Source: Candidatus Yonathbacteria bacterium (GTDB lineage Bacteria > Patescibacteriota > Minisyncoccia > Phycocordibacterales > JACNGX01). From it: DNA of 52,984 nucleotides. Of the stretch, positions 4,742 through 43,470 are shown piece after piece (positions within the stretch are counted from its first letter, which is position 1; every line of letters starts with the position of its first letter). The DNA lies in NCBI GenBank assembly GCA_013334825.1, contig JAAXWR010000002.1, positions 100,025-153,008 of the forward strand, given 5' to 3'. The translations under genes and the position numbers were made by a program. The notes below the pieces were generated by a model. The model saw only the letters and a program-made list of their open reading frames with translations. It was not told the origin of the DNA and searched no databases.

Positions 4742-4815
4742 TCTAATGGTAGGACATCGCCCTCTGGAGGCGAGTATCTAGGTTCGAGTCCTAGTCCCGC
4801 AGCCAGTCTGGACAC
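4742..4815 (+). tRNA. tRNA-Gln(CUG)
   Basis: Acceptor TGCGGGA/TCCCGCA, anticodon stem TCGCC/GGCGA, loop CTCTGGA (anticodon CTG), T arm CTAGG-TTCGAGT-CCTAG, discriminator G and encoded CCA. Confidence 0.9.
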
Positions 4816-4853
4816 TGTTCCTGAGACCAGGACGGGTCATATAAAATTAACCT

Positions 4854-5498
4854 ATGGCAGAAAAAGATATGACAGACAAGATTCAGTCTTGTTTAAATCA
4901 GGGTGAATCTATAACAGAGGATCAAGTCAGGTCCTTAATGATTTTGGTGCGTAAGCATCTTGAGCTCATGTCTGATACAGACATGCTGCAATTTTTAACA
5001 CTCAACCTATTTTGTAATTGGTGCGCTCATATAGAAATTACACAATCAAATACAGGCCTGCGAACTCTCGCAAAGATTAATGATGTTTTGGTGCGCGTAA
5101 AAAATTCAACAAACACTGATCACATGCTCGCGGAAATATCGGGTGCAATTGGTCTCGATGTGCTTCGTGCAGAGCTAATTACTTTCTTATCTCGAATTGG
5201 AGTTACACATCGTTTGGATCAGAGAGCAGAGTGGGCGGCTTTTCTAAAGTGCTTACTTGAAGTTGTTCGTGATGTGCCACTAGCATTTCCTCCGATTGCT
5301 AAACTCAACAAGGGAGCTCAAAAAATCTACGATCAGATTGCTCAAAATCCGATTAAGCCCGGGGCAGGGGTAATTCGCGCTACTATTTCAAAGGTAGATT
5401 ACGGCACTCTTGGAGCAGGAGAAGGAGAATTATGGTGTCTCCTAATACGGACTGAAGATACTACTACTCTCATTGCTCCTCTCCGTATCCTCGTCTAG
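4854..5498 (+). CDS. hypothetical protein
   Basis: 214-aa ORF. ATG 6 nt after TAAAAT (4842-4847). No recognised family. Confidence 0.6.
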   Translation: MAEKDMTDKIQSCLNQGESITEDQVRSLMILVRKHLELMSDTDMLQFLTLNLFCNWCAHIEITQSNTGLRTLAKINDVLVRVKNSTNTDHMLAEISGAIGLDVLRAELITFLSRIGVTHRLDQRAEWAAFLKCLLEVVRDVPLAFPPIAKLNKGAQKIYDQIAQNPIKPGAGVIRATISKVDYGTLGAGEGELWCLLIRTEDTTTLIAPLRILV

Positions 5499-5503
5499 TG
5501 GAT

Positions 5504-6841
5504 TCATGAAGGGTTTTCGAGCAATACTTTTTTGTTTATCAGAGTAAGCTTACTTTTAAACGACTGCATCAGCTCGCGCTTCTCCGCGACGGTTCCTTTT
5601 TTGAGAATATATTTTGCATAGGATCGTAGGTCTAAGCCGCTCTGGTCGGTTATCTGGTCTTCGGTTAAGCCAAGTACATTATTACGGAAATTACTGAAGC
5701 GCCCCATCTCTTTTTCGAGTTTTTCTTTAATTCCAATCTTATCTATTTGGATCTTGTCTAAGATCGCTAAAAGTTGTTCGACAAGACTGTCCTCACGCAA
5801 ATAGGTGTTTTTACACGACTTGTCATAAAATCGGGTACAGCCATAGTAGATGTAGCTGTTCGTAGATCCGTCTTTTAGATTTTTAAACTTCTCCTGTGCG
5901 GTTATACCAGAATTACATATTCCGCATTTCATCAGGCGAGTAAATGCAAATTCTTTCACCGCTGGCCCATGCGGTTTATGCGAATCAAGTTTTTCCTGGA
6001 CCTTCTTGAATAACTCCTGACTGATGATTGATTCGTGTCGGCCGATATTCCACCTACCACTCTTCCGTGGGTACTCGAGCAGTCCACAGTAAAAAGGATT
6101 TCGGAGAACGGTGTGCACGTTGCTAAGAGTGAAGGGCTTACCACTTTTGGTTCTAAATTTTAGGTCATCCTTCAACCATCTGTATAACGCTCTTCCACTC
6201 CACTTTTCGTACGCCACTTTTTCAAACATGATTTTGATGACGTGAGAGCGTTGAGGATCGAGAATGACGTGGCATTTCTTGGTGCGATCCGGGTGGTTGA
6301 GGTATCCGGTTGGTGCAACACTCGGCCACAGTCCCATTTCAATCCTGGTGCGAAGTCCGCGCTTCACGTTGACACTCTTATTATCGTTATCAAGCTTCGC
6401 CTGACTACAAAGAATCATCAAGAGGAACTTTTCGCTTGGAGAGTTGGTGAAGCGTTGCCCGTACGTTTTTACTTCTATCAGTTTGTGCTGATCCATCAGG
6501 TCAACAATTGAGCCGAGGTCGCCGGCATTTCTTGAGAGGCGATCGGGATGCCAAGCAAGAATACCGCCAAATCGACCCTCTTTAATTTGCCGGATCATCT
6601 CATTGAAGACCGGTCTCTGAGCAGTCTCTTTTGCCGAGTGCGACTCGCGTTTAATCTCTGTCACCTCGATTCCGTCTCGCTGGGCTAACTGCAACATCTC
6701 CTTGATCTGGGAATCGATGGACAGAGCCTGCTTTTCATCCGATTCGCTCGATTTACGGGCGTATAGGCAGTATTTGGGCGCTTCTATAGGAGGCGCCGGG
6801 TCAGAATTCAACTCTAGCGGGTTGCTGATGTGCATACACAC
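5504..6841 (-). CDS. large serine recombinase (resolvase domain + recombinase domain + zinc ribbon)
   Basis: N-terminal YARKSSESDEKQALSIDSQ resolvase-type catalytic Ser region. Later CGICNSG ... YYGC zinc-ribbon-like cysteines. Confidence 0.85.
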   Translation of the reverse strand: MCMHISNPLELNSDPAPPIEAPKYCLYARKSSESDEKQALSIDSQIKEMLQLAQRDGIEVTEIKRESHSAKETAQRPVFNEMIRQIKEGRFGGILAWHPDRLSRNAGDLGSIVDLMDQHKLIEVKTYGQRFTNSPSEKFLLMILCSQAKLDNDNKSVNVKRGLRTRIEMGLWPSVAPTGYLNHPDRTKKCHVILDPQRSHVIKIMFEKVAYEKWSGRALYRWLKDDLKFRTKSGKPFTLSNVHTVLRNPFYCGLLEYPRKSGRWNIGRHESIISQELFKKVQEKLDSHKPHGPAVKEFAFTRLMKCGICNSGITAQEKFKNLKDGSTNSYIYYGCTRFYDKSCKNTYLREDSLVEQLLAILDKIQIDKIGIKEKLEKEMGRFSNFRNNVLGLTEDQITDQSGLDLRSYAKYILKKGTVAEKRELMQSFKSKLTLINKKVLLENPS

Positions 6842-7024
6842 AACACATGCCGGACCTGGGGGAAGAAGTCTAGCCGCCCATTAGTGGATAACCAAGCAGA
6901 AAGTTAGAATTGCGGGAAGTTCTTATTAAAGTCACCTTCTAACCCACCGTCCCTTTTCGGGGGAGCAGGTTATTCTCTTATTTTAGGCCATTATATGGTA
7001 TGGCGAGGATGTAATAAGAACAAC

Positions 7025-7053
7025 TTGACAAGGCCTGGTACTTTGTATACACT
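7025..7053 (+). promoter_or_regulatory. sigma70-type promoter TTGACA-17-TACACT for the 7087 operon
   Basis: TTGACA at 7025-7030, a 17-nt spacer, then TACACT at 7048-7053. Confidence 0.55.
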
Positions 7054-7086
7054 TGTACTAAGCTTATTATTAATTCTGAAAACATC

Positions 7087-7890
7087 ATGGCTGAGGAAAA
7101 CAAAGGAGAATCTGGGGCTGGCAAGGTTAAGAAGGAGCGCAGTACCGCATATCCGGGTATTGCCGTACAAGACGCAATTGGATTCAGTAAGATTCTCGTC
7201 GATTCTTATGGAAAGTCTCCATTTAACAGAGACGCTGCGCTGCAGGCACTTAAGCTAAAACCCGGCGGTTCTTCGTTCACGAAGGTGGCGGCGCTGGTGC
7301 ATTACGGTCTACTTACAAGACAAGGTAACGCATACGGTATTTCGGAGCTTGCTGAGCGAATCATTTACTTCACTTCGGAGGAAGCGCAAAAGGCAGCAAT
7401 TGTCGAAGCTGTGTTAAAGCCGAAGCTGTTCAATTCACTCGTAACGGAATACACAGGCCGAGCGGTCCCAAATCTTCTGCGGAACATTTTGATCCAACAG
7501 CATAAGATAAACCGGAATGTTGCCGATAATGTCGCGGACATCTTCAAGTCCTCCATAGAGCATGCAGGCTTGTATATGAATGAAATCATAACCGCGGTAC
7601 CGGTTACGACTTCCGAAGTGTCTGATACGGGAGAAGAATTAGATGTACAGGATCTTGCCCAACCTCCTCGCGCTACAGGGAAGATGCCGGTTGCTCCACA
7701 GTTAAAAGTCCCCGCTGGGATGCAAAGTGTCTCTCTTCCAAGTGGAATTATTATCAGCTACCCCTCTGAAGTGGCATATCTGTTTGCGCTCGGTAAGTTT
7801 GGAGCCCAAGTAGCTGCTCTTGAGGAAGCTGTCGGTAAGGAGTTGAAAAAAGATAACAATGACCCAGAGCCTATTACTGCCACAGAATAA
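7087..7890 (+). CDS. hypothetical protein (possible winged-helix repeats)
   Basis: 267-aa ORF. The next gene overlaps it by 32 nt. No family recognised. Confidence 0.6.
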   Translation: MAEENKGESGAGKVKKERSTAYPGIAVQDAIGFSKILVDSYGKSPFNRDAALQALKLKPGGSSFTKVAALVHYGLLTRQGNAYGISELAERIIYFTSEEAQKAAIVEAVLKPKLFNSLVTEYTGRAVPNLLRNILIQQHKINRNVADNVADIFKSSIEHAGLYMNEIITAVPVTTSEVSDTGEELDVQDLAQPPRATGKMPVAPQLKVPAGMQSVSLPSGIIISYPSEVAYLFALGKFGAQVAALEEAVGKELKKDNNDPEPITATE

Positions 7891-8800
7891 CTGGAAGAAA
7901 GTACTTCCTCACATCCAAGCGGCTGGCGAACGTCAGTCGGTAAGTAAGGCTACGATTGGTGACGATTTTCAGTTTCTCCAAGACATCGGTGTCTTTCAAG
8001 AAGGCGCAGATGATGTTCTCACAGAAGCTGGGCGAGCTATCTTCGAGTCCATATTCATTCGGCGTGATGGGAAAGATGTAGAGATCCTTCAGCAACTATT
8101 GTTACAGTACCCAATCACTATCGCAATTCAGCAGTATCTTTGGGGGGTGAAAGATGCCAAGATCGATCAGGCGCTTACAGTCCTTAAAGCGACAGGTTTC
8201 TGGTTCTATTCCTCCGCAGAGCCAATGACACACTTTCTCGACCTACTAAATCAGGTTGGGATAATTAGCTATAGCAAAAAGTTGCGACAAGTTAAGGTTC
8301 TGGTTTCTCCTGACGTACCGTATGTTCCAAAAAATGTTTTTATTGACCCTAATCGACCGTTCTCAAACATTCTGTGGATAAAGAGGATCCTTGCGGAATG
8401 TAAGGGTTCAATATTGTGGTTTGATAAGCACTTCCAAAAAGAAGCCCTGGAATGGCTGTGGGCAGTAGCGGACGCAAACAAGATTACAGAGATCAAATTA
8501 CTCTCGCTTGATTTGGGGGAAGCAAATCTTAGCTCAGAAGCAAGGAAATCTTATAAACGATTTAAGCAAGAGATGCTTGCTAAAGGAATCAATGCCACTT
8601 GGTCAGTTATTGATAGTAAGCTAGTAAGAGATAGCCACGATAGGTGGATACTCGATGGGAGTGGTTACATGAGAAATGTTCCCAATGTAAATGCCATATC
8701 CTCAGGACAGCGATCCGAGATGTCTGTATCTGAGAATTATGATCAAATGCTTCCGGTGTTTGAAGAGTATTGGGAAAAGTCAAAAGAAATTACGAGTTAA
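7859..8800 (+). CDS. hypothetical protein, C-terminal PLD-fold / MIT_C-like module (tentative)
   Basis: 313 aa. The C-terminal pattern ILWFDKHF ... KLLSLD ... SHDRWILDGSGYMRNVPNV resembles the MITD1 C-terminal PLD-like domain (HDR-I ... G). Confidence 0.5.
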   Translation: MTQSLLLPQNNWKKVLPHIQAAGERQSVSKATIGDDFQFLQDIGVFQEGADDVLTEAGRAIFESIFIRRDGKDVEILQQLLLQYPITIAIQQYLWGVKDAKIDQALTVLKATGFWFYSSAEPMTHFLDLLNQVGIISYSKKLRQVKVLVSPDVPYVPKNVFIDPNRPFSNILWIKRILAECKGSILWFDKHFQKEALEWLWAVADANKITEIKLLSLDLGEANLSSEARKSYKRFKQEMLAKGINATWSVIDSKLVRDSHDRWILDGSGYMRNVPNVNAISSGQRSEMSVSENYDQMLPVFEEYWEKSKEITS

Positions 8801-8811
8801 TATTAAACATT

Positions 8812-9057
8812 ATGGCAAAACTGAATAAGTTCACACTGGAGTATAACGAGAAGAAGGATCGTTGGGATCTACGAAATGACAAGACGGATAAACTAATTGA
8901 ATCGTTCGACACTAAGACAGAGGCCACGGCCGGAGGTGTTCTACGGGAAGCGGTTGGTGATAGTGGCGGATCGGTCAAAATCCAAAAAGAGAATGGTCGC
9001 ATTCAGGAGGAGCGTACGTATCCAAAGAGCGCAGACCCTAGAGAATCAAAGGGATAG
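8812..9057 (+). CDS. DUF2188 family protein
   Basis: WDLRNDK ... FDTKTEATAGG ... SVKIQKENGRIQEERTYPKSADP matches the DUF2188 layout. Confidence 0.7.
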   Translation: MAKLNKFTLEYNEKKDRWDLRNDKTDKLIESFDTKTEATAGGVLREAVGDSGGSVKIQKENGRIQEERTYPKSADPRESKG

Positions 9058-9334
9058 TCTTGAGCCTTGTTGTATATAAATTAACCTAAGCTAAGCTAGA
9101 AATAGGTAGCAAATTTTGCTACAATTATTTAACAGTTCGGCCTAAACTTGTCGGTTAACTCCGGCAAGCATGGCAATAAATACCCGCTAGAGATCAAAGG
9201 ACTCCTGGTCAGAGTCACTCTAGCGGGTCATATCTGGAAACAGGTATGGGTTCGGCCGAAAGGTTGGATCGCGATGGTCAGGAGCCTTTTGATTATCTGG
9301 TTCACTCCGTCGATTAAAAACCCGCTAGAAAATT

Positions 9335-9559
9335 ATGAAAACAATACGAATCGTTCTTGGTTTGCTTTTCTGTCTTACTATTTATTTTCTTCCCACAGGA
9401 ATTGCAATTATTAGAAGCCGATCGAATACAGTAGCAATCCTTGTACTTGATCTATTCCTGGGTTGGACAGGAATTGGTTGGGTGGTCGCCTTAATTTGGG
9501 CAGTTGCCACAGATACGCCAAAGTCAGTAGTTCAGCAAACTCCTCAGCAAAAGATTTAA
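9335..9559 (+). CDS. superinfection immunity (Imm_superinfect) family membrane protein
   Basis: YFLPTGIAIIRSRSNTVAILVLDLFLGWTGIGWVVALIWAV matches the T4 Imm-like family signature (GWT-iGW--AliWA). Confidence 0.8.
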   Translation: MKTIRIVLGLLFCLTIYFLPTGIAIIRSRSNTVAILVLDLFLGWTGIGWVVALIWAVATDTPKSVVQQTPQQKI

Positions 9560-9790
9560 AGTGTGAATGAATATGTGGAGAAAGGGGTGGATATCTCGCC
9601 TTAGACTTCCGTGGGAGTTTTACCCTTTTTCATTTTTTAAGTATCTATAAAATAGCTTTGTTTTTAGCCAAAGTTGTGTAATCTCTTACCCCAAAATACC
9701 TGTTTTTATGGTGTAAAAGTCGGTATGTATTGGTCATAAAATTCCCCAGTTTTTGTGGAAGATCTGGCGGATAAGATTTTATCGAATTCT

Positions 9791-9902
9791 GGATGTGTAC
9801 ACCATAAGTATTTTTGATGTTTTCCTATTTTGTCTTTATTTTAAAGCCTTTAATCTTAAAAATAGGGGGGTCAAAAAAGCCCATCTTATGGTGTACACAT
9901 CC
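9791..9902. repeat. 18-bp perfect inverted repeat
   Basis: ggatgtgtacaccataag (9791-9808) and its exact reverse complement cttatggtgtacacatcc (9885-9902). Confidence 0.9.
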
Positions 9903-10178
9903 AATTTGATTAATAGGACTAATAACCCGTCTTAATGCTGTAAAAGTCTTTGGGCTATTTTGTTTTATCCTTATTTAAGGCTGTATTCTGGATGGTCTAA
10001 CTCGGACTTTTACAGGATCCTGGTTCTGGCGAATAGCGACCAAGACGGGTCACTGTCTGAGACTCGAACCGAGTATAATAAGGCTCAACAGTGGGGCATC
10101 AAACACACCCAACCAGACCTGTCAGCAATGAAGCGCAACGAAATGGTGCGGGACTCGAACGCGACAGAAACAAAATAC

Positions 10179-14350: not shown

Positions 14351-14357
14351 ATGTTTG

Positions 14358-14419
14358 GAAAAAGGCAAAAATCTCTCGCATGTTTGATGTTTTCTGCTAT
14401 AATCGGGGAATGGAAGAAT
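14358..14419 (+). promoter_or_regulatory. repeated promoter/5' module, copy A (TGCTATAAT at 14395-14403)
   Basis: About 62 bp, near-identical to 15448-15510. The -10 ends 6 nt before ATG 14410. Confidence 0.6.
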
Positions 14420-15396
14420 TTCCTCTCAACAAAAAAGAATCGGGAATCAACAGAGTTGTTGGCTTTGACCATGAAAAGGAAACTGATTTTTTGGATTATT
14501 TCAAAGAAAAATTTGAAAGAAATTTTTTAGAATATGGAGAGAGAGAAAAGACCCTCGAAGAAATTGCCATTCTTAATCGTGTTAATAAGGATATGGTAGA
14601 GTTTTTACGGCATTACGGAGTTGAGGCAATTGAGATATCTCCCAATAATATTCATATACTTGATAAATCAAGATTTACTTCAGAAGAATTAAAAAAAATT
14701 CAAGAAAGATTTGGGACAGAGAGTGGTTTCTATTCTTCAAACAAACAAGGAGTCGGGATCATGAAAGATTATGAAGAAAATAAACTTTCTTTTCTTCAAA
14801 CTGTAGTGCATGAAGAACTTCATCTTCAAGGGTTCTATTCGTATCAAAAAAGTCTTCATGAAGGTGCAGAAATTACTTTAAAAAAAGAAGATGATTTGGT
14901 AGATATGAACACCCGAAGATCAGGGTTTTCTATGGGCACCACTGATGGAAAGACTCTGTTTTTTCGTGATGTTAACGAAGCTATCATTACTGAACTGCAA
15001 ATTCGTTTTGAACGTATGTTTTTAGAAAAATATCCCGAGTTAGAATCAGAGTTAGAAGCACGTGATGATTATATACAAGAAGTGGCAAGGAGAGATGATG
15101 CTCCTATAGAAAAAGTAAGAGAAGTGGTTGGAAAAGTCATTATAAATGAGGATGGGGAACGAAAGTGGAGAAGTTATGCATATCATGAAGAGCGCAAGAA
15201 GTTTGCTGAACTTATTGATGAATTGTATAAAAAGAACATGTCAGATTTTGAATCGAGAGAAGATGTGTTTAACCTCTTCGCACAAGCAACTTTGACGGGT
15301 AGGGTTCTCCCTGTTGCAAGATTGATTGAAAAAACATTTGGAAAGGGGGCATTTAGAAAACTCGGTGAAGGAAGTGCAGAGAATTATGTGGAATAA
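14410..15396 (+). CDS. hypothetical protein with HExxH motif (putative metallopeptidase)
   Basis: VVHEELHLQG motif. I place the start at MEEFPLNK because the upstream part of the long ORF is a DNA-level promoter repeat. Confidence 0.55.
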   Translation: MEEFPLNKKESGINRVVGFDHEKETDFLDYFKEKFERNFLEYGEREKTLEEIAILNRVNKDMVEFLRHYGVEAIEISPNNIHILDKSRFTSEELKKIQERFGTESGFYSSNKQGVGIMKDYEENKLSFLQTVVHEELHLQGFYSYQKSLHEGAEITLKKEDDLVDMNTRRSGFSMGTTDGKTLFFRDVNEAIITELQIRFERMFLEKYPELESELEARDDYIQEVARRDDAPIEKVREVVGKVIINEDGERKWRSYAYHEERKKFAELIDELYKKNMSDFESREDVFNLFAQATLTGRVLPVARLIEKTFGKGAFRKLGEGSAENYVE

Positions 15397-15447
15397 CATC
15401 GTATATACTCATGTATATGTTGCGTAAAAGAGACATTTCGCCTACGT

Positions 15448-15510
15448 GAAAAAGGGCAAAAATCTCTCGCATGTTTGATGTTTTCTGCTATAATCGGGGG
15501 ATGGAAGAAT
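15448..15510 (+). promoter_or_regulatory. repeated promoter/5' module, copy B (TGCTATAAT at 15486-15494)
   Basis: Same sequence as copy A with one inserted G and one substitution. The -10 ends 6 nt before ATG 15501. Confidence 0.6.
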
Positions 15511-16286
15511 ATCTTACATTTGCAAAAGAACTCGCCAAAGAGGCCGAGGAAATTGCGTTGAAATATTTCGGTTTTGATACCGAGACGACGTGGAAAGGGG
15601 ATAATACACCGCTGACGCAGGCGGATACGGAAATTAATGATTTGGTTATCCAAAGGGTTAATGAGCGATATCCCGAACACAGTATATATGGAGAAGAGAA
15701 AAGTGATAGAAAAGAAGGTGCCGAATATATCTGGGTGTGTGATCCTATTGATGGCACGATGGCTTTTTCGTGCGGAATGTCAGAGTTTGTATTTTCTATT
15801 GCGTTGGTAAATGTATCAAACGGCTTACCTGTGTTTGGATTGATACATAATCCGATAATGAAAAATACATATTGGGCGCATAAAGATGGCGGAGCATATA
15901 GGGATGGAAAAAAGATTATAGTATTAAAAAAAGAAGATTTTGCAAATACATATTTAAGTACTGGGGCTTCAGGACGTGCACTTGGTTTTTCAAATCTCCC
16001 TCTTTTAAAAACATTGAGTGAAAAGAAATGCGCGACGATGAAATTCCCGGGGTTTATCTATGGTGCGATACAAGTTGCAAATGGAAAATATATCGGCGCA
16101 GTGTATTATCATAAATATGCTCACGATGTCGCCGCGCTCAAGATTATTACCGAGGAAGCGGGTGGCAAAGTAACCGATTTAAATGGAGAAGAAAGGCGAT
16201 ATGATGAAGACGGTCTTGGCTGTATCATTTCAAACGGCATCCTCCATGATGAATTGGTGCAGATTGTGCAGACGGGGAAGGTATAA
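15501..16286 (+). CDS. inositol monophosphatase family protein
   Basis: IYGEE metal site and the WVCDPIDGT signature. Confidence 0.9.
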   Translation: MEEYLTFAKELAKEAEEIALKYFGFDTETTWKGDNTPLTQADTEINDLVIQRVNERYPEHSIYGEEKSDRKEGAEYIWVCDPIDGTMAFSCGMSEFVFSIALVNVSNGLPVFGLIHNPIMKNTYWAHKDGGAYRDGKKIIVLKKEDFANTYLSTGASGRALGFSNLPLLKTLSEKKCATMKFPGFIYGAIQVANGKYIGAVYYHKYAHDVAALKIITEEAGGKVTDLNGEERRYDEDGLGCIISNGILHDELVQIVQTGKV

Positions 16287-16336: not shown

Positions 16337-17455
16337 ATGAAGACTCTGGACATTACTCAAAACGTTGATTTTTTAAAAACATCTCCGATGTTTAATTTTT
16401 CACTTGGTTCGAAAGAGCTTTTTCACAGTAATTTCTTAGCATGGTTTGTTGAAGAGTATCCTGTGAGTGCGTCACATGTACTCAACACTTTTTGTATAGA
16501 AGATGATATTCCGCGAGATATAATCAATGTTGCTCGTGAAAGAAAAAATAAAGACCTCACTATTTATTTTTCAGACAATTCAAGTCTTATAGTTGAGAAT
16601 AAAGTAAAAAGTATACCGTCACTTGAACAACTAAGTAGGTACTCCAAGGATTGTAAAGGTATGCCAGGAAAAACATCATTCCTTCTTTTGTCTCTCATGC
16701 GCCCTCTCTTTGTATTGCCAAAACCATGGCAATACATGAATTACGGTGATCTCAGTAATCTAATAGAAAAAGAGATAGTGTATATTGAAAATTCATATCA
16801 TAAAGAAATCGTATATGATTATGTGAGAATGGTTAAGGCACTTCACACTCTTGTGCAAGAGATTCATGTTGCGGATGAGGATTTGTATAATTTTTGTGAA
16901 GATGGAATACACATAATTTTTAGAGAAATACGTATAGGTGATTTATATCACAAGCTACGGTTTCAGTTATTTGCGTTACGTATAGAAACAATGTTGAAAG
17001 AGTCCTTTCCTGAGAGTATATTTTCTATTGGTGATCGCGAGGGAGAGAAAGTAGCAGGACAGTTTTATATAAATATTGGGATGACGCGCGGGCAAGGATT
17101 GGTGGAGGTTGCATATATGATTATTCCAGGTTTATTTATTACGATACAGATTCAAGATAATCATTACAAACAAATGGTACAAGGATATGCCGGTTATGGC
17201 ACTGATGCAAAGCGTGTTGCTAAGATCCTTAAAGAACATGAATGGTGGTTTAACTTTGTCCAGATACAACATAAAAAAGAATATCCCAAAGATATAAACT
17301 CCTTTAATAAATACGGCACAACAGATTTTTATCGATCGGTATCATTAGATAATTCAGTCACGGTGAGAGATATTATTTATTCAATAGTAAGTGATATACG
17401 CACGCTTAAACAACAAGAAGGAAATATTAAAGCGATTCTTCCTAAAAGAATATAA
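16337..17455 (+). CDS. PD-(D/E)xK nuclease family protein (PDDEXK_4-like)
   Basis: ELFHSNFLAWFV, then DLTIYF ... LIVENKVKS ... EQLSRY, the typical N-terminal PD-ExK arrangement. Confidence 0.6.
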   Translation: MKTLDITQNVDFLKTSPMFNFSLGSKELFHSNFLAWFVEEYPVSASHVLNTFCIEDDIPRDIINVARERKNKDLTIYFSDNSSLIVENKVKSIPSLEQLSRYSKDCKGMPGKTSFLLLSLMRPLFVLPKPWQYMNYGDLSNLIEKEIVYIENSYHKEIVYDYVRMVKALHTLVQEIHVADEDLYNFCEDGIHIIFREIRIGDLYHKLRFQLFALRIETMLKESFPESIFSIGDREGEKVAGQFYINIGMTRGQGLVEVAYMIIPGLFITIQIQDNHYKQMVQGYAGYGTDAKRVAKILKEHEWWFNFVQIQHKKEYPKDINSFNKYGTTDFYRSVSLDNSVTVRDIIYSIVSDIRTLKQQEGNIKAILPKRI

Positions 17456-19286: not shown

Positions 19287-19501
19287 AAGTTTTTGTGTTA
19301 TACTAGCCTCTTACGAACGAATCTCTCGTCTCTTTTTCTTTTTATGGTCTCGTTTATAGTTTATCGTTTACCGTTTTCTTCTTCATAATTTGCCTTTCGT
19401 ATTCTTGATTCGTGCTTCTTGATTCCCTGCACCACGTAGGATGCAGGGCACGCTTAATTCGAGTGTCCGCCCCTATCACCTCTAACCTATTTCCTCATTT
19501 T
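19287..19501 (+). repeat. pyrimidine-rich mosaic intergenic repeat (family F), locus 1
   Basis: Modules: TTATCGTTT, tcgtattcttgattcgtgcttc, hairpin ccctgca-N10-tgcaggg (19425-19448), cacgcttaattcgagtgtccg, and tatcacctctaacctatttcc. Shared with the loci at 26422, 39202, 42061 and 52597. Confidence 0.85.
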
Positions 19502-22269: not shown

Positions 22270-22421
22270 AATAAAAAGAGATATGAATAAATGTGTATGC
22301 TGTATAGTGTAGCGTATTTGAGGGAGAGTGCAAGAGAGACACAGAAAGGTGCAGATTATGCGCGGAAACACACGGAATCAATATCTTGTATATACAAAAA
22401 AGCAGGCATACGCCTGCTTAG

Positions 22422-22859
22422 CTATGTCTCTGTGGGTATACACATCTTCCAGTAGTATCTGAATCCACAAGTGGTATCGATGTGGAATTCAAAGACGTCT
22501 GTATCATTTGCAAGAGAATCAAATATTAGACCAGTTCCGATACCACAATTGGGGGAAATATGATGTTTTGAAGAATATCCTGATTTACTGACAATATCCC
22601 AATCATATGGCTCATTATCATAATCAAAGATATCAAATGTGAGGATACTTTCATATTTTTTTATGAAACATATTCCTCTACCAGTCTCTGTGTGATCATA
22701 GATATTTTTTAATATTTCTTTTATGGTTAAAAAGACATTTGAAAAGGACAGCTCGACACCTAATGCATTGAATAGAGTTTTGTACGCTTTTATATTTATA
22801 AATTCTGAACGTTTTTTATCTTTTCGATCAAGGTGTATGGTTATTTCGATATGTTCCAT
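22422..22859 (-). CDS. small GHKL/HATPase_c-like protein (anti-sigma-kinase-like), tentative
   Basis: EILKNIYDHT (N-box-like) and CGIGTGLIF (G2-box-like GxGxGL). AT-rich gene. Confidence 0.4.
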   Translation of the reverse strand: MEHIEITIHLDRKDKKRSEFINIKAYKTLFNALGVELSFSNVFLTIKEILKNIYDHTETGRGICFIKKYESILTFDIFDYDNEPYDWDIVSKSGYSSKHHISPNCGIGTGLIFDSLANDTDVFEFHIDTTCGFRYYWKMCIPTET

Positions 22860-22942
22860 CGTGGTTATTTTTTTGTTTACGTTTGACTGAAAGCAACAAT
22901 AGCACATTCTTTCTCAATTGCAATGATATTTTATCAATATGT

Positions 22943-22988
22943 TATTTCGTCCTCCTCCACACAAGTGCAAAGAGGAAGATGAGTACTG
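22943..22988. repeat. 46-bp direct repeat, copy 1 (relic of the znuB 3' end)
   Basis: Identical to 23867-23912. Read on the minus strand it encodes ...VLIFLFALVWRRTK-stop, like the ZnuB C-terminus. Confidence 0.9.
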
Positions 22989-23013
22989 GCAGAATGATGG
23001 GGTTGTACAGATA

Positions 23014-23042
23014 GAGTGTTGTCTACAAAAAACCGAGGAATC
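23014..23042 (-). terminator. rho-independent terminator of 23073-23783
   Basis: accgaggaa-tca-ttcctcggt stem-loop followed by a T-run on the minus strand. Confidence 0.7.
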
Positions 23043-23072
23043 ATTCCTCGGTGATGTCATATAGCTAAGTTT

Positions 23073-23783
23073 TTATTTCCCATCAGCACCTCTTTTTTTC
23101 AAAGCTTCAAACTGTTTTCTTTGTCGTTCCATATAGCCTGAAAGCAGTTGAGCATTTGTTTTGAGAAGATGTGTTGTAACAGATTCAATTGTCACATTAG
23201 GAACAACTTTCTCCATTTTTTCTTTCAATATGGAAAAATTATCGGGTTCTATAAAAGATGTTCCGAGACAGAGAATCAATTTTGGGAGAAAACAATCTAA
23301 TGTATGAAGTGAGATTGTTACTTCCTCCGCCGTTTCTCCCCAGCAAAGGATTTTATCACTCTTTAACATAAGATAACCGAAAGTGTCAGAAAAGACAAAA
23401 TCAGACATCATGATAACGATGTCAAACTTTTTTTCGATTTGCATTATATTTTTGTTAAAAAATATATCTGCTCTTTCAGTGTTCGAGCATCTGTCATTTG
23501 CTTTTTCTGGTTTTTCTAAACCAACAAAGATAGGTATCTCAGTTTCAGTAAGATACCCAAATGGAGATGAAAAATCATCTTCCGTCAGGGCGCGTTCAAT
23601 CCAAGGCAGTTTCTTTGAATTTGAATTTGGTATTAAAAATTTATTTGCAATCATACTATGTCGATAGATTCTCGACATATCGATAATTGCAAGTCGTTTT
23701 CCTGATGTTGAAAGCTGTACTGCTAAAGCATAGCAGTAATAAACGGGCGATTGATCACCAAGACTAATAACACTGAGTATCAT
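23073..23783 (-). CDS. hypothetical protein, ParA/MinD-like fold lacking a Walker A lysine (tentative)
   Basis: ILSVISLGDQSPVYYCYALAVQLSTSGKRLAIIDM and FDIVIMMSDF align in layout with the ParA P-loop and Walker B regions, but GKT is absent. Confidence 0.4.
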   Translation of the reverse strand: MILSVISLGDQSPVYYCYALAVQLSTSGKRLAIIDMSRIYRHSMIANKFLIPNSNSKKLPWIERALTEDDFSSPFGYLTETEIPIFVGLEKPEKANDRCSNTERADIFFNKNIMQIEKKFDIVIMMSDFVFSDTFGYLMLKSDKILCWGETAEEVTISLHTLDCFLPKLILCLGTSFIEPDNFSILKEKMEKVVPNVTIESVTTHLLKTNAQLLSGYMERQRKQFEALKKRGADGK

Positions 23784-23865
23784 GGGATAATATTTTATTT
23801 TTATGAAAAAGGACGATATTTTTTTATAGCATGGTTAATATTTTTTGTCAATTTTTATATGATAG

Positions 23866-24672
23866 CTATTTCGTCCTCCTCCACACAAGTGCAAAGAGGA
23901 AGATGAGTACTGATAAGAGAACAATAGTGGCGCCAGTGGGGATGTCGGCAAAAAATGAGAGTGTGATACCGATAAGAATAACGCTTATAGCAAGGAACAC
24001 AGAAAGAGTCATTGCACCACCAAAGCTCTTGGCCAGCTGAAGTGCGGTAACAGCAGGAATGACAAGAAGCGCTGAAACAAGAAGAACGCCAACTGCTTTG
24101 ATGGAGAGAACAACAGCAATGCCGGTGAGTGCCATGAGAAGCGCTTCGATAAGTTTCGTGTGAATACCACTTGCACGCGCAAGTGATTCATCGAATGTTG
24201 TGAGGAAAAATGTGTGATAATTGACGAGGACAAGAACTGCTACTATGACAGAAAGTGCTGCGGCAAAAACAATTTCCCATGTCGCGACAGCGAGGATATT
24301 ACCAAAAAGATAGGAAAAAAGGTCCACGTTAAAGCCTTGTGCCATACTGGCAAGAAGTACTCCTCCTGCCACGCCTGTTGCTGATATGATACCAATTGCC
24401 GCATCACCAAAAAGTGTCGCGCGTTCGGTGAGTTTCCCTATACCAAGTGAGGCAAGGACGACAATAGGAACAGCGACCACAAAAGGATACATGCCCATGA
24501 CCATGCCGAGAGCAATTGCGCCGAATGATACGTGTGCGAGACCATCACCGATGAGCGCACGATTGCGGAGAACAAGAAGAAGTCCGAGCATGCCCGCGAG
24601 TGCGCCGATACACACACCTACGATATAGGCATGCATGATAAATCCATAAGAAAAAAGTGAGAATATATCCAT
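23866..24672 (-). CDS. znuB: metal (Zn/Mn) ABC transporter permease
   Basis: ABC-3 family pattern LRNRALIGDGLAHVSFGAIALG. Start placed at MDIFSLF, 1 nt after the znuC stop. Confidence 0.9.
   Translation of the reverse strand: MDIFSLFSYGFIMHAYIVGVCIGALAGMLGLLLVLRNRALIGDGLAHVSFGAIALGMVMGMYPFVVAVPIVVLASLGIGKLTERATLFGDAAIGIISATGVAGGVLLASMAQGFNVDLFSYLFGNILAVATWEIVFAAALSVIVAVLVLVNYHTFFLTTFDESLARASGIHTKLIEALLMALTGIAVVLSIKAVGVLLVSALLVIPAVTALQLAKSFGGAMTLSVFLAISVILIGITLSFFADIPTGATIVLLSVLIFLFALVWRRTK
23867..23912. repeat. 46-bp direct repeat, copy 2 (functional znuB 3' end)
   Basis: Identical to 22943-22988. Confidence 0.9.
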
Positions 24673-24673: not shown

Positions 24674-25438
24674 TTAGTGTTCTGTGTGGGGATGATTGAA
24701 GAGGTGCTCTCCCGCGATATCTCCACCAAAATAATTGCGCAAGACGTCATCCTTACAAGAGCCGTCAAAAGGTCCGGAGAAAATAACTTTTTTGTCGAGG
24801 AAAAGAAGTGTGTCCGCGTATTGTCCGATATGCGCGGTATCGTGCGTTATCATGAGAATGGTAACACCACGTGCATGTTCGTCTTTGAGAAACGAAAAGA
24901 TGTGCGAACGTGTTTCTTGATCGAGTGCTGTTGAAGGTTCGTCAAGAATGAGCAAGTCAGGACGCGCGACAATAGCGCGTGCCAGAAGCATACGTTGTTT
25001 TTGTCCTCCGGAAAGCGCATGAACAGATGTGTCGCTTTTGTCTGTCATGCCGACACGTGCAAGTGCGTCTTGTACACGCGTTTTGTCTTGGGTGTTATAT
25101 CGTTTTGGGAATCGTTTCTCAGCCAAAAGTCCAGAACGCACAATTTCGGCGACAGTGGCGGGGAAGAGAGGGTTGAAATGACCCGTGTGTTGAGGAAGAT
25201 AGCCGATACGTTCCCATGAGGAAAACGATGTTTGTGGAGTTTCAAAAAGTGTGATGTCTCCTGTATAAGGTGTCGCAAGTCCAAGAAGGACACGAATGAG
25301 GGTCGTTTTGCCTGCACCATTGGGACCAGCAATTGCGACGTATGACCCTTTGAGAACAGAAAAAGAGACATTGCGCAGAGCGGTGTCAGTTTTGGTGTAT
25401 CCAAACGAGAGATTGTTAACAGAGATGATTGGTTGCAT
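24674..25438 (-). CDS. znuC: metal ABC transporter ATP-binding protein
   Basis: Walker A GPNGAGKTT, signature LSGGQKQR, Walker B LLILDEP. The ATG at 25438 is preferred over the upstream TTG. Confidence 0.9.
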   Translation of the reverse strand: MQPIISVNNLSFGYTKTDTALRNVSFSVLKGSYVAIAGPNGAGKTTLIRVLLGLATPYTGDITLFETPQTSFSSWERIGYLPQHTGHFNPLFPATVAEIVRSGLLAEKRFPKRYNTQDKTRVQDALARVGMTDKSDTSVHALSGGQKQRMLLARAIVARPDLLILDEPSTALDQETRSHIFSFLKDEHARGVTILMITHDTAHIGQYADTLLFLDKKVIFSGPFDGSCKDDVLRNYFGGDIAGEHLFNHPHTEH

Positions 25439-25443
25439 ATATG

Positions 25444-26421
25444 TTACTTGCAACGAAGTCCAGCACGGAGTGTCGCAAGATTCGTTTCAAGTATGGTGAT
25501 GAATGAGACACCATTGTCGCGTGCATCTTTACCAATATTTCCCGCCGGGTTTAACATATGTACTGTAGCTCCAGTCTCACGTGCAAGCGTGTCAGCGATA
25601 GCCGGACTTTCAAGTGCATCGGTAAATATTGCTGTTGCGTTTTCTTTTTTTACAATATCAGAAAGAGTAGCAAGCGCTGATGCGGAAGGTTCAGCGTCAG
25701 GGGAATATCCTTGGGCCGCGACATAGTGAAGGTCGAATGCTTCGGCAATGTATCCGAATGCGTAATGACCACCGTAGATGATTGTACGCGTATCACACGA
25801 AGAAAGCCCTGTTTCGTACGCGGCGAACACGGCATCGAGTTTTGCAAGATATGTGTCACGAGCATTGGCGATGTCTACGGAATGAGAGGGAAGCGCTTCT
25901 ACGAGCGCAGTGCCGATATCGTTCGCGATTACATGAGCATTGTGAGGTGAGAGCCAAATATGTGGGTCGCCCGCTTCGTGATCGTGGTCATGTTCTTCCG
26001 CTTCGTGTGCTTCTTCACTCTCATGTGCCTGTTCATCTTCTCCGTCTTCGTGATGAATGTCAGCATGGGTACTCGCATTGACAATAGTCATATGTGATGT
26101 ATCAATACCTGCAAGTAAATCAGCAACCCATGGTTCCATAAAAGGACCTGTATAGATAAACACATCTGCATGGGTAATTGCCATAATGTCAGAGGGTGTT
26201 GGTTCGTAGTTGTGTGGACTCATGCCGGGAGGAAGAAGGAGCGTTGTCTCAGTATATGTACCACCGATTTCACGTGCCATATCATAAAGTGGAAATAGTG
26301 TCGTTACTACGAAAAGTTTTTCCGAAGGTTTTGTGGAGGACGTATTTTGGATGATGAAGGTAAGAGCACCAAATATAATAACAAGCGTGACGATAATAAG
26401 TATGAGACGAGAGGTAGACAT
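25444..26421 (-). CDS. znuA: metal ABC transporter substrate-binding protein with His/Asp/Glu-rich loop
   Basis: TroA/ZnuA cluster-9 fold pattern, signal-anchor N-terminus, and loop HHEDGEDEQAHESEEAHEAEEHDHDHEAGDPH. Confidence 0.9.
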   Translation of the reverse strand: MSTSRLILIIVTLVIIFGALTFIIQNTSSTKPSEKLFVVTTLFPLYDMAREIGGTYTETTLLLPPGMSPHNYEPTPSDIMAITHADVFIYTGPFMEPWVADLLAGIDTSHMTIVNASTHADIHHEDGEDEQAHESEEAHEAEEHDHDHEAGDPHIWLSPHNAHVIANDIGTALVEALPSHSVDIANARDTYLAKLDAVFAAYETGLSSCDTRTIIYGGHYAFGYIAEAFDLHYVAAQGYSPDAEPSASALATLSDIVKKENATAIFTDALESPAIADTLARETGATVHMLNPAGNIGKDARDNGVSFITILETNLATLRAGLRCK

Positions 26422-26700
26422 AGTATATGGGGAAATAGGTTATAAATATAGGAAAGAGGTTAGAGGAACGGACATTCGAATCAAGCGTGCCCTGCATCCT
26501 ACGTGGTGCAGGGAATCACGAAGCACGAATCAAGAATTAAGGGTTACGAAGTACGAACTTGTACGAACATACGAAACGAGACGGGAATCAAGAATACGAG
26601 AGGCGAATGAAGAAATATGAACGTAGGAAATAGGTTAGAGGTGATAGGTTATAGGGACAGACGGGAAGCATGCTGAGATGTTAGGTTTATTCTTGCGCCT
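26422..26700 (-). repeat. family F intergenic repeat, locus 2 (inverted orientation)
   Basis: Reverse complement carries the same modules, including hairpin 26490-26513 and TAACCTATTTCC (26431-42) 9 nt upstream of the znuA ATG. Confidence 0.85.
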
Positions 26701-30893: not shown

Positions 30894-31265
30894 TTAACCA
30901 TTCAGACAACGGTATGTACCGTCTTCCTGTTTTTCGAACTCAAATACCGTTCTCCGGCAAGCAGATGCCGGAGTTTTCATAGAAGGTTCTACGGAAATTC
31001 TGAAAACAGGTCGCATGCTCTTCTGAAGACGGTACGACCTTTCCGCCTCCGTCATATGGATCACAGAGATGGTTGCGTCCTTTTCTTTGAGCAAGTGAAA
31101 GAGGGTATCCGCCTCACTAAAATGACTGAGGTATTTTAACGTCCACGGATGTTCCGCAATGAATGCGGACGGGACATCAAAGACGTCAGTTCGTCTTTTA
31201 GCCGTTGCGACCAGGTCATGAATGACTTGAATCGCCGCTTCTTCGTTAGCATAATATTTTTTCAT
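30894..31265 (-). CDS. hypothetical protein
   Basis: 123-aa ORF with its own terminator. Confidence 0.55.
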   Translation of the reverse strand: MKKYYANEEAAIQVIHDLVATAKRRTDVFDVPSAFIAEHPWTLKYLSHFSEADTLFHLLKEKDATISVIHMTEAERSYRLQKSMRPVFRISVEPSMKTPASACRRTVFEFEKQEDGTYRCLNG

Positions 31266-31444
31266 GAAAGCTTATTTTTGTTGTTTTTTGGCGACTTGTC
31301 TTTGAGTTTCTACAAAAAGTTTATCACAAAAAATAGTATGTGTCAACTTACTGTATGATTGACAATGTTGAGGGTATGCCTTCATGATGTAATAGTTTAG
31401 AAAAATGATTCGTTTTTTTGTCTTTTTCCGTTATACTTGAACAT

Positions 31445-34506: not shown

Positions 34507-34758
34507 TATTTGATTGTAAAACAAAACTTCTTATAAACAATTCCGTATATCTGCCAAAACAGCTACTTCGGAACAGTATATGTATTTGATTGTAAAACAA
34601 AACTTCTTATAAACAATTCCGTATATCTGCCAAAACAGTTATGCGGGAATATTGATACTACAATCTTTTGTAGTGTTTTGTGAGATTGGGACAAACCCGT
34701 ATATCTGCCAAAACAGCTACTTCGGAACAGTATATGTATTTGATTGTAAAACAAAACT
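34507..34758. repeat. 76-bp tandem repeat (one full copy plus two partial copies, the last after a 58-bp spacer) between tRNA-Asn and pyk
   Basis: Unit tatttgattgtaaaacaaaacttcttataaacaattccgtatatctgccaaaacagctacttcggaacagtatatg. Copies at 34507-34582, 34583-34638 (partial) and 34697-34758 (partial). Confidence 0.9.
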
Positions 34759-34962
34759 CCCTATTGGAATGATTGCTTGTCCCAAACTCTTTGTTACCTG
34801 TCAGGTAACGTTCTTTATCATACCAAACGGACGAAAAATGGCAACCTGTTTTCCCATACTGTCAAAATGTCTAAGAGTAGTATATACTATTGATGCCAGA
34901 TGTTCTCCGGCGTATTTTTTACCATTTTATTTTCCCGCCATAGGCGTTTCATATTTATGAAA

Positions 34963-39201: not shown

Positions 39202-39700
39202 GCGGATTAGAAGCGAAAGGTGAGTTTCCCGCGACGTCTCTGCTATGGTGGGGTGGATAAATTTTAAGAATGTTTATGAAGATTACGAATAATGAATGTA
39301 TACGAATACGATTTTTTTTATCGTTTATAGTTTTCTCTTCCCATATTCCTTATTTCTATTTTCTTATTTCATTGTCTATAGTTTTCGTTTTCATATTTCT
39401 ATTTTCTTATTTCATCGTCTATCGTTTATAGTTTTCGTCTTCATATTTCATATTTCATCATTCGTCTTTCGTATTCTTGCTTCATGCTTCGTGATTCGTG
39501 CTTCGAGTATCTGTCCCTATAACCTATCACCTATAACCTCTTTCCTACGTTCATATTTCATCATTCATCTCTCACATTCTTGCTTCATGCTTCGTGATTC
39601 GTGCTTCGAGTATCTGTCCCTATAACCTATCACCTATAACCTCTTTCCTACATTCGTCCGTCCCTATCACCTCTAACCCATTTCCTACATTCATATTCCC
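39202..39700 (+). repeat. family F intergenic repeat, locus 3 (expanded)
   Basis: T/C-rich modules with TTATCGTTT (39318, 39420). Includes the 103-bp tandem duplication and a third partial distal module (39652-39690). Confidence 0.85.
39448..39651 (+). repeat. tandem duplication, 2 x 101 bp (period 103)
   Basis: 39448-39548 and 39551-39651. The distal portion of about 75 nt is identical; the few mismatches are all near the 5' part. Confidence 0.9.
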
Positions 39701-42060: not shown

Positions 42061-42291
42061 GACGAGAAGCAAGAATACGGGAAAACTGGAAGCAAGAATC
42101 ACGAAGCACGAATCAAGAATACGGGAAAACTGGAAGCGCGGGACGAACTTACTGGAAGCAAGCTTGCCATGCACCCTACGTGGTGCAGGGAACATACGAA
42201 CCGAGACGGGAATCAGGAATACGAGACTGAAGGACAGGAGGTGAGAATCAAGACAAAACTGATAGGGAAGCATGGGACAGTGGCGAATACT
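42061..42291 (-). repeat. family F intergenic repeat, locus 4 (inverted orientation)
   Basis: The reverse complement carries tcgtattcttgattcgtgcttcgtgattc modules and a degenerate hairpin (42167-42190). Confidence 0.8.
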
Positions 42292-42887: not shown

Positions 42888-42959
42888 GGCCCTATCGTCT
42901 AATGGTTAGGACATCACCCTCTCACGGTGGTAATCGGGGTTCAAATCCCCGTAGGGTCA
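42888..42959 (+). tRNA. tRNA-Glu(CUC)
   Basis: Acceptor GGCCCTA/TAGGGTC, D arm GTCT-AATGGTTA-GGAC, anticodon stem TCACC/GGTGG, loop CTCTCAC, T arm CGGGG-TTCAAAT-CCCCG. Confidence 0.9.
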
Positions 42960-43024
42960 CAAAAAATCTTTAGGTCGCCGAAGAGGCGACCTTTAGATTT
43001 TTCTGTGACCCTACGAGAAAGGCA

Positions 43025-43167
43025 ACTGCTTGCCTTTCGTGGGATTTGAACCGGCGGAGCATATCGCACCAAAAGTGCGATGCGAGCCGCGCCCAGCGGT
43101 ACTTATGAAAATCCGAATACATGGAGGATTTTCATTAGTAACCGCGGGGTCGACTCCCCGTAGGGTC
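43025..43167 (+). repeat. family-E structured module 1 (ends in a tRNA-Glu 3'-end copy)
   Basis: Hairpin atcgcac/gtgcgat, GCCGCGCC box, hairpin 43106-43134 with loop GAATACATGGA, TTAGTAAC, T-arm-like cgggg-tcgact-ccccg, then tagggtc. Confidence 0.8.
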
Positions 43168-43170
43168 TTT

Positions 43171-43313
43171 ATATGAGTCGAACGGCGCAAGGCGGTATAC
43201 AAGATGCGCGACTTGTTCGCGCATGCTTGTCGCCGCGCCGCGTCCAGGAGTACTTAGTAGATTGCGAATACTTGGAGCAATCTACTTAGTAACTCCGGGA
43301 CGACTCCCCGTAA
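43171..43313 (+). repeat. family-E structured module 2
   Basis: Hairpin atgcgcga/tcgcgcat, GCCGCGCC box, hairpin 43257-43285 with loop GAATACTTGGA, TTAGTAAC, then ccgggacgactccccgta. Confidence 0.8.
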
Positions 43314-43318
43314 ATCGG

Positions 43319-43470
43319 ACTGCTTGCCTTTCGTGGGATTTGAACCGGCGGAGCATATCGCACCAAAAGTGCGATGCGAGCCGCGCCCAGTAACCCTTTG
43401 CATATTCCGAATACCTGGAGTAATATACGTAATAATCGGTAATAATCGCGGGACGATTTCCCGTAGGGTG
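43319..43470 (+). repeat. family-E structured module 3
   Basis: 43319-43390 is identical to 43025-43096. Degenerate hairpin with loop GAATACCTGGA (43409-19). Ends cgcgggacgatttcccgtagggtg. Confidence 0.75.

Follow-up and report, generated by a model that had tools for sequence, protein, structure and literature searches.

We report a strain-specific insertion at the 3′ end of znuB, the permease gene of a ZnuABC-type metal importer, in a Candidatus Yonathbacteria genome (assembly GCA_013334825.1, contig JAAXWR010000002.1). The DNA analyzed, referred to here as the window, is a stretch of 52,984 bp (contig positions 100,025 to 153,008), and all coordinates are given within it. The insertion is a 924-bp unit consisting of 878 unique bp (22989..23866, minus strand) and one copy of a 46-bp direct repeat, and it sits exactly at the stop codon of znuB (23866..24672, minus strand). 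It is absent from two related metagenome contigs, and we have very little doubt that a strain-specific insertion exists at this position. The ZnuB amino acid sequence is left unchanged, and only the stop codon has changed from TAA to TAG. The sole gene of the insert is ORF236 (23073..23783, minus strand). We favor a Campbell-type integration across an attachment-site (att)-like core, to which we assign a probability of roughly one-half.

The two repeat copies, at 22943-22988 and 23867-23912, are 100% identical, as stated in a first-pass annotation of this DNA. The 46-mer occurs twice in the window when up to 3 mismatches are allowed and is not found in 100 dinucleotide shuffles; we could locate no true additional copy in metagenome or viral contigs, which removes the suspicion that it is a generic repeat. 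On the minus strand it comprises CA of a serine codon, the final 14 sense codons of ZnuB (VLIFLFALVWRRTK), and TA of the stop codon. The proximal copy (copy 2, 23867..23912) forms the last 46 nt of znuB ahead of the final stop base; its right side joins the znuB body, its left side joins insert DNA, and the base that follows is a G (TAG stop). The distal copy (copy 1, 22943..22988) is non-coding, is followed by an A (TAA), and joins the ancestral stop codon and downstream flank on its left side. Its reading frame translates as ...YNPIILPVLIFLFALVWRRTK*, with a stop 26 codons upstream and no start codon. The earlier description of copy 1 as a minus-strand relic that reads to a stop is borne out. 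Outside the perfect part, the weaker similarity suspected upstream is no better than chance, with 428 of 2000 shuffles reaching the same score, and neither is that of the downstream arms (667 of 2000). The 46-mer is bounded on both sides by an abrupt drop from 100% identity to the chance level.

The closest relative of ZnuB (P0002; 97% identical and of the same length, 268 aa) is encoded on two independent metagenome contigs, L002 (ENA ERZ27245471, 21 kb) and L003 (JGI 3300025115). Both align with the window at 92.5-94% DNA identity in two BLAST blocks, with a jump from 23853 to 22988 that leaves 878 bp missing. In L002 and in L003 the znuB end ...GAAATAA runs directly into CATATCGATAAAATATCATTGCAATTGAG, the sequence found to the left of the distal copy in the window, and an orthologue of ORF145 followed by a SIMPL gene lies downstream of znuB, in the same order as in the window. 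The first-pass annotation had proposed an insertion that regenerated the znuB 3′ end and had suggested looking for an uninterrupted locus in relatives; both contigs contain this empty site, and neither shares the duplication. Divergence between the window and L002 is even, with 91-98 matches per 100 nt up to both junctions, and no imported, differently diverged tract is found beside the znuB junction in this comparison, which argues for a clean insertion that is not part of a larger imported tract. The distal copy is continuous with ancestral downstream DNA and the proximal copy with the gene body, and either may hold the old 46 nt. The ancestral znuB-ORF145 intergenic region (22860..22942, minus strand), collinear with L002 2589-2695 except for a 19-nt gap, is now located 924 bp away from znuB. 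Compared with the window copies, the single copy in the relatives shows differences at 3 of 46 positions, of which two are non-synonymous. The identity of the two window copies, set against these differences, suggests that the event is recent or that the element is matched to the lineage.

ZnuB homologues are labeled Parcubacteria, Yonathbacteria, or Patescibacteria by their sources. In more distant relatives (75-78% ZnuB identity), znuB is directly followed by an FtsX-type gene or by other DNA, and ORF145 and the SIMPL gene are missing. The region after the znuB stop thus behaves as a variable slot in this clade. A ZnuB scan of genome contigs returned distant homologues only (29-45% identity) and no useful locus.

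The insert has a GC content of 33.7%, compared with 42.8% for the window and 46-47% for znuA, znuB, and znuC; 1.6% of 878-bp windows are equally AT-rich. Judged by its composition, it appears to be foreign. A promoter-like site (TTGACA, 17 nt, TATAAA; 23823..23851, minus strand) was read by eye from the sequence; this assignment is a weak one, and a promoter scan made no call here because the second hexamer lacks the final T. ORF236 is followed by an intrinsic terminator (23025..23052, minus strand) with a 9-bp stem (ACCGAGGAA/TTCCTCGGT; hairpin 23052-23032) and a T-run. The insert thus looks like a complete small transcription unit with a promoter-like site, ORF236, and a terminator, in agreement with its first description as an AT-rich segment holding one ORF and a terminator.

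How could such a unit have been placed at the znuB stop codon? In the Campbell-type integration that we favor, it would have arrived as, or via, circular DNA carrying 46 bp identical to the last 46 bp of znuB. One reciprocal crossover inside this sequence (attP × attB → attL + attR) would then have joined the two molecules. Because the unit encodes no recombinase, the enzyme would have been supplied in trans, from elsewhere in the genome or by a helper element, or would have been lost as a larger element decayed. The outcome would be an integrase-less, att-flanked islet of the kind described as a cis-mobilizable element (CIME). The proximal copy would complete ZnuB, and the distal copy would be left 924 bp downstream as a non-coding relic on the old TAA and its flank. 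Precise loss could again occur via both repeats, through a recombinase or through ordinary repeat-mediated deletion.

According to the literature, tRNA genes and housekeeping protein genes are the usual targets of tyrosine-recombinase elements, which choose the 3′ end or, less often and in the protein genes, the 5′ end. The gene end is contained in one of the flanking repeats, so that the target is not disrupted; elements in which attL and attR persist although the integration genes are gone are known as CIMEs (PMC5704250). The att sites of tycheposons measure ∼40 nt, and their islands contain repeated partial target copies together with degenerate, integrase-less remnants (bioRxiv 10.1101/2020.12.28.424599).

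Several features of the znuB locus support an att-like integration. The repeat is perfect and unique in the window, the empty site in the two independent relatives matches the reconstructed attB, and the identity edges at the 46-mer are sharp, as for an att core. The outer edge of the repeat lies on the second base of the stop codon, and the gene is thus restored exactly. The cargo has a foreign composition and ORF236 is nearly without relatives. In addition, there is site-specific-looking traffic at a tRNA-Gln cluster in the window, and an island with a large serine recombinase is absent from relatives. The znuB locus therefore has the anatomy of an attL-element-attR arrangement: flanking repeats, an intact target (ZnuB of 268 aa with an unchanged C terminus), and an empty site. 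An integrase gene carried by the element next to its att site is missing.

This last point is the first of several that weigh against a site-specific integration. The insert contains no recombinase, as had been noted before: Pfam, NCBIfam, PADLOC, and PHROGs give no match for its single ORF, which lacks a recombinase domain and is predicted to adopt a MinD/ParA-like fold. Gene fragments of a decayed larger element are also absent from the 878 bp. A Pfam scan of 48 ORFs (most ORFs of at least 130 aa) detected no tyrosine recombinase in the 53-kb window. The only recombinase found there is a large serine recombinase (5504-6841), 16 kb from the insert, and enzymes of this class use very short crossover cores and leave no 46-bp repeats. 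In protein, viral, phage, plasmid, and metagenome collections, neither the unit nor the 46-mer turned up again, be it as a free molecule, on a virus or plasmid, or at a second chromosomal site, and no attP-bearing element was encountered. A 21-mer taken from the core of the repeat has one exact match, by chance, in an unrelated permease gene among the metagenome contigs (L019), and none in viral contigs; 32-35-mers specific for the insert likewise have no match in viral contigs. A dyad or hairpin inside the 46-mer is weak and non-significant (z = −1.45). The attP site would have to equal the znuB of this strain at 46 of 46 positions, including the 3 that vary in ∼92%-identical relatives, and a match this complete comes as a mild surprise if the element moves from strain to strain. 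Finally, variable DNA of this lineage often has its start immediately behind a stop codon, for example 19 nt past the SIMPL gene, so that an edge at a stop codon is not specific to an att mechanism. The first-pass annotation had compared the event to the target-restoring integration known from tRNA genes. The outcome fits this comparison, with a restored ZnuB end and an empty site in relatives. A site-specific recombinase is a putative cause, and an origin by illegitimate recombination fits the anatomy nearly as well.

We regard this second explanation, an illegitimate or homology-facilitated join made in the absence of a recombinase, as possible but less probable than a Campbell-type integration. 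Patescibacteria are thought to depend on DNA uptake. DNA from a sibling strain in which znuB is followed by ORF236 would have been taken up and paired with the recipient znuB, and an illegitimate join would have linked the foreign tail to the recipient at a point 46 nt before the znuB stop; in a variant of this scheme, an unequal exchange would have taken place between two variants of the locus. The 46-bp repeat would be a by-product, with its outer edge marking the end of homology at the stop codon and its inner edge an arbitrary junction. Such a join would explain the perfect identity at strain-variable positions without invoking a matched attP, and would account for the absence of a recombinase, of terminal inverted repeats, and of an attC-like structure. 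Strain-variable segments at several loci begin right after stops or just before starts, and an insert at suhB in the window (described below) resembles the product of such a mechanism. The even divergence reported above speaks against it: an imported, differently diverged tract is missing beside the znuB junction. A donor with adjacent znuB and ORF236 genes was not found among 5.8 billion clustered and 1.84 billion representative proteins. The foreign fragment must also have ended just past an intact terminator, and the origin of ORF236 behind znuB is merely shifted to another strain.

It is improbable, in our view, that the insertion is ancestral and was precisely lost in the L002/L003 lineage by recombination between the repeats, making the empty site secondary. 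A repeat-mediated deletion would recreate the exact L002/L003 sequence, and the distant relatives with 75-78% ZnuB identity have another downstream neighborhood and cannot polarize the event. Against this stands the identity of the two copies, one of which is non-coding, in lineages whose DNA differs by ∼7.5% and, within the repeat segment itself, at 3 of 46 positions. By a rough estimate, one to three differences would be expected in a repeat of this age unless it had been homogenized. ORF236 is moreover seen only in assemblies of this strain.

We also considered an assembly artefact, in which a 924-bp circle or a strain variant sharing the 46-mer had been threaded into the contig. A k = 31 Logan assembly graph of run SRR11449211 indeed breaks exactly 30 nt into each copy: one unitig (L001) consists of the 878 bp plus exactly 30 nt of each repeat, and the neighboring unitig (L020) begins 30 nt inside the repeat. 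These unitigs independently confirm the sequence of the insert, although at k = 31 an integrated copy looks no different from a circle alongside an empty site. The insert unitig is present in two sequencing runs (SRR11449211 and one more). Both junctions are resolved in the 388,826-bp contig, and as the final k-mers usually employed (55-141) exceed 46 nt, junction-spanning reads were probably needed to assemble it. We therefore hold an artefact to be very unlikely.

A transposon with a long target duplication or an integron-type cassette would also yield a single-gene unit between copies of its target sequence, but is hardly credible here: we find no terminal inverted repeats spanning the insert ends and (by Pfam) no transposase, 46 bp is far beyond usual target duplications, the cassette ends in a plain terminator hairpin rather than in an attC-like imperfect palindrome, and no IntI-type tyrosine recombinase or attI is found in the window. 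An assignment as an integron gene cassette was rejected for want of attC and of IntI/attI, and the cassette also carries its own promoter-like site.

The znuB insert is one of three repeat-bounded, low-GC, single-gene inserts in the 53 kb, with repeats of 46 nt (100% identical) at znuB, 78 nt (100%) at tRNA-Gln(UUG), and 67 nt (94%) at suhB. At the second locus the whole tRNA-Gln(UUG) gene is perfectly duplicated (2042-2119 and 3193-3270). The copies bracket 1073 bp at 38% GC, with one ORF (2388-3104, 238 aa) and a hairpin; the ORF has no family match except a weak LmuA-like one (E 5e-4). In the relatives L026-L030, a single tRNA-Gln(UUG) is followed after 51 nt by tRNA-Gln(CUG), and the segment 2120-4682 of the window is thus extra and strain-specific. 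Directly behind the second tRNA copy lies a GC-rich, structured non-coding element (3271-3436, 166 nt). It opens with an inverted copy of the tRNA-Gln 3′ half and contains the conserved boxes GTGGAGGARGTACATGGAACCGT, GGTTCCATGAGCGCAG, and CGAGCAGTGAGTA along with a variable hairpin. A longer version (∼295 nt; L026 6576-6870) is found at tRNA-Gln(CUG) in relatives. The element ends in a repeat of the 3′ end of the tRNA-Gln gene that precedes it, 17 nt of the UUG gene in the window and 13 nt of the CUG gene in the relatives. It belongs to no Rfam family, and returned sub-threshold, meaningless miRNA-hairpin matches only.

At the third locus, the 5′ end of suhB, a 67-nt repeat (14356-14422 and 15447-15513) comprises the promoter, the leader, and the first four codons. 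Between its copies lies a 328-aa ORF, AT-rich and with an HExxH motif, that is read in frame from the first copy on. The cargo of this slot differs in relatives (YunG, PRiA4_ORF3, and two unknown genes). The suhB gene of the window is only 77% identical to that of the relatives, compared with 84-91% for neighboring genes, and the impression here is rather of an imported segment whose left junction arose illegitimately. By inspection, no obvious end motif is shared among the three cassettes.

These loci show a very plastic genome, in which new DNA has repeatedly been placed at gene ends with duplication of the end. It is conceivable, if doubtful, that the lineage acquires single genes by an undescribed general route, in which small, self-contained cassettes are placed at gene ends and 46-78 nt of the target are duplicated. 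The enzyme of such a route may not be a classical element-borne integrase. If this were true, an ultra-small genome would be running a cassette economy like that of integrons, with neither attC nor IntI.

Among known systems, the znuB insert is closest in form to CIMEs, the integrase-less, att-flanked remnants of integrative and conjugative (ICE) or integrative and mobilizable elements (IME), such as those that streptococci carry at the 3′ ends of fda and of ribosomal-protein genes (PMC5704250). Like these, it leaves its target gene intact, retains putative attL and attR copies in the absence of integration and transfer genes, and has an empty site in relatives. It differs in its size (0.9 kb, one gene), in containing no recognizable ICE or IME remains, in having no cognate integrase or full-length element known for the site, and in its patescibacterial host. 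The insert thus fits the CIME definition in a descriptive sense only. A literature search for such elements in Patescibacteria, or the candidate phyla radiation, returned nothing pertinent.

The locus also resembles the tycheposon islands of Prochlorococcus, the integrase-carrying elements found beside tRNA and tmRNA genes of another streamlined genome. Both have ∼40-nt att repeats that are partial copies of the target, strain-specific cargo, and tandem as well as degenerate, integrase-less cargo segments (bioRxiv 10.1101/2020.12.28.424599). A further likeness is that variable slots in our window include defense genes (Gabija, and a match to the candidate family PDC-S26). Unlike tycheposons, the znuB insert targets the 3′ end of a protein-coding gene, has no hallmark gene, and bears no sequence relation to them.

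Phage 21 and e14 integrate in the icd gene of E. coli, at the 3′ end of a protein gene, and bring a replacement end. As in the znuB insert, a new 3′ end is supplied, the protein remains functional, and the displaced end becomes a downstream relic. These elements, however, are complete prophages or sizeable remnants of them, each with an integrase gene alongside, and their replacement end is longer and not identical to that of the host. Staphylococcal cassette chromosome (SCC) and pseudo-SCC cassettes insert at the 3′ end of rlmH (orfX) in staphylococci, have repeats of ∼15-18 bp made by large serine recombinases (CcrAB), and are many kilobases long. They share with the znuB insert the location at the 3′ end of a housekeeping gene and the bounding direct repeats; some lack a recombinase of their own and depend on one in trans, and tandem arrays occur. 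They differ in their shorter repeats (∼15-18 versus 46 bp) and their size (many kilobases versus 0.9 kb).

Patescibacteria have tiny genomes and few recognized mobile elements, and their gain of strain-specific genes is poorly understood. The znuB locus offers a clean, polarized example, with occupied and empty states, exact junctions, and a single, nearly unique cargo gene. It demonstrates that a gene can be added at a gene end without damage to an essential transporter operon, in a form that allows later loss via the 46-bp repeats. Taken alone, the insert is a small variation on well known att-flanked islets; as far as our literature search reached, it is new for the phylum. Should the other repeat-bounded inserts share its route, the locus would provide a handle on a general mechanism of gene gain in this phylum.

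We next describe the cargo. ORF236 matches only itself among the 5.8 billion clustered proteins. A HMMER scan of the 1.84 billion representative proteins returned five weak relatives (78-238 aa, E 2e-17 to 2e-4); P0123, a repetitive protein whose match is confined to the C-terminal residues 188-233, was left out of the family. The 50,697 phage records and 72,556 plasmid records searched by tblastn gave no match. Where their context is known, the relatives are solitary genes in unrelated neighborhoods (one adjoins rmuC, another lies between dnaK and dnaJ), and no flanking direct repeats are present at the three homologue loci L016-L018. The public version of the protein (P0001, 193 aa) starts at an internal Met, and positions 23655-23783 of the window encode 43 residues upstream of it. 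Four of the remote homologues (P0124-P0127) align also to residues 1-43, and the fifth (P0128) covers the C-terminal part only. As these first 43 residues are conserved, the start is probably at 23783 and the public annotation too short.

An AlphaFold2 (AF2) model of ORF236 based on this small alignment has a predicted local distance difference test (pLDDT) score of 68.9 and a predicted template modeling (pTM) score of 0.67, residues 1-170 being the good part. Foldseek matches of the model include BcsQ (PDB ID 6yb5), MinD (1hyq), and ParA (3ea0) with E-values of 1.6e-5 to 5.6e-5 and a template modeling (TM) score of ∼0.5, as well as Wzc kinase domains and FlhG (E ∼1e-5, TM ∼0.5). This moderate-confidence predicted model has the fold of SIMIBI-class P-loop nucleoside triphosphatases, and it shares with MinD, ParA, and BcsQ the topology, the β1-loop-α1 element, and the arrangement of hydrophobic strands with Asp/Ser. 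Unlike these proteins, ORF236 reads GDQSPV at the P-loop position and lacks the lysines of the deviant Walker A motif (KGGxGK[ST]). It has no match in Pfam, and a profile of its family has none among PDB sequences. The lysines are missing as well from the other three homologues whose P-loop could be aligned; in P0125 (GIRGKGV) one is present. ORF236 is thus predicted to be a MinD/ParA-fold protein that has lost canonical ATP binding and hydrolysis. It is not a recombinase, and we would suggest, with low confidence, that its function is probably to bind a partner or to act as an adaptor, and not to catalyze a reaction.

On the minus strand, the gene order around the insert is znuA, znuC, znuB, an 83-nt spacer, ORF236, its terminator, the distal repeat copy, ORF145 with its terminator, and the SIMPL-domain gene. 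The first gene of the operon encodes a znuA-type metal-binding lipoprotein (25444..26421, minus strand; Pfam ZnuA, 6.9e-71) with a His/Asp/Glu-rich loop in its translation. It is followed by a znuC-type ABC ATPase gene (24674..25453, minus strand; Pfam ABC_tran, 4.7e-32) and by znuB itself, which is intact and has an ATG start (Pfam ABC-3, 1.2e-60). Adjacent genes for a ZnuA-family binding protein, an ABC ATPase, and an ABC-3 permease identify a ZnuABC-type importer by Pfam. The NCBIfam ZnuB and AztB models match the permease below their cut-offs only, and zinc specificity is therefore presumptive.

The AT-rich stretch extends to the left of the insertion over ORF145 (22422..22859, minus strand; 32% GC; own terminator at 22400-22419). 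ORF145 lies outside the insertion, because it directly follows znuB in the relatives. It has no match in Pfam, NCBIfam, PADLOC, or PHROGs. A first impression of a histidine-kinase-like ATPase was withdrawn, as the single-sequence AF2 model is unusable (pLDDT 41). There is no third relic of the znuB end downstream of ORF145 or of the SIMPL gene, in the window or in L002, so that ORF145 is not demonstrable as an earlier cassette at the znuB site. A 38-nt leader motif (AAACTCAAAGACAAGTCGCC...AAAAATAA) is located upstream of ORF145 in L002 (2650-2687) and recurs in the window at 31272-31309, upstream of an unrelated 123-aa ORF (30894-31265, minus strand); the leader of ORF145 in the window lacks 19 nt of it. 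Collinearity with L002 stops at position ∼21513, 19 nt past the SIMPL stop, where L002 continues with FtsX, ABC ATPase, and sigma-70 genes and the window with a convergent MatE gene.

Other features are found along the window. An island at 4806-10154, downstream of tRNA-Gln(CUG), contains the large serine recombinase gene (5504-6841, minus strand), several ORFs without a family match, and a LOOT RNA (9139-9270, 79 bits). At this site relatives carry another 1.1-kb cargo with a 241-aa ORF, and inverted tRNA-like fragments form the right border in the window and in the relatives. Between suhB and rsgA, an AT-rich PD-(D/E)XK gene (16337-17455; Pfam PDDEXK_4; candidate defense family PDC-S26, 1e-9) occupies the place of a NUDIX gene in L021 and L022. 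A complete Gabija pair, GajA (43597-45696, 8e-284) and GajB (45678-47579, 8.5e-238), is followed by an Imm5-like gene in an AT-rich locus (43597-48235), which is located just downstream of tRNA-Glu (42888-42960) and of a 120-nt, 84%-identical repeat pair (43025-43438). Between the CTP synthase gene and a 225-aa ORF, relatives have an extra 164-aa gene that is absent from the window (1157-1283 versus L026 5099-5593), another single-gene presence/absence difference. Tandem repeats of 74-76 nt (34507-34764) lie beside tRNA-Asn, a spot at which the distant relatives L007 and L008 have a 411-413-aa gene with a weak rve (DDE integrase) match. Finally, a family of intergenic repeats, built from ∼14-nt units (GAATCAAGAATACG-like) and a hairpin (CCCTGCACCACGTAGGATGCAGGG), is found upstream of operons (19382-19495, 26441-26661, 39346-39700, 42066-42226, and 52605-52636). 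Two members, at 19401-19490 and 26448-26537, lie in inverted orientation (90% complementary) on either side of the entire MatE-to-znuA block, and it is at this repeat that the L002 contig ends.

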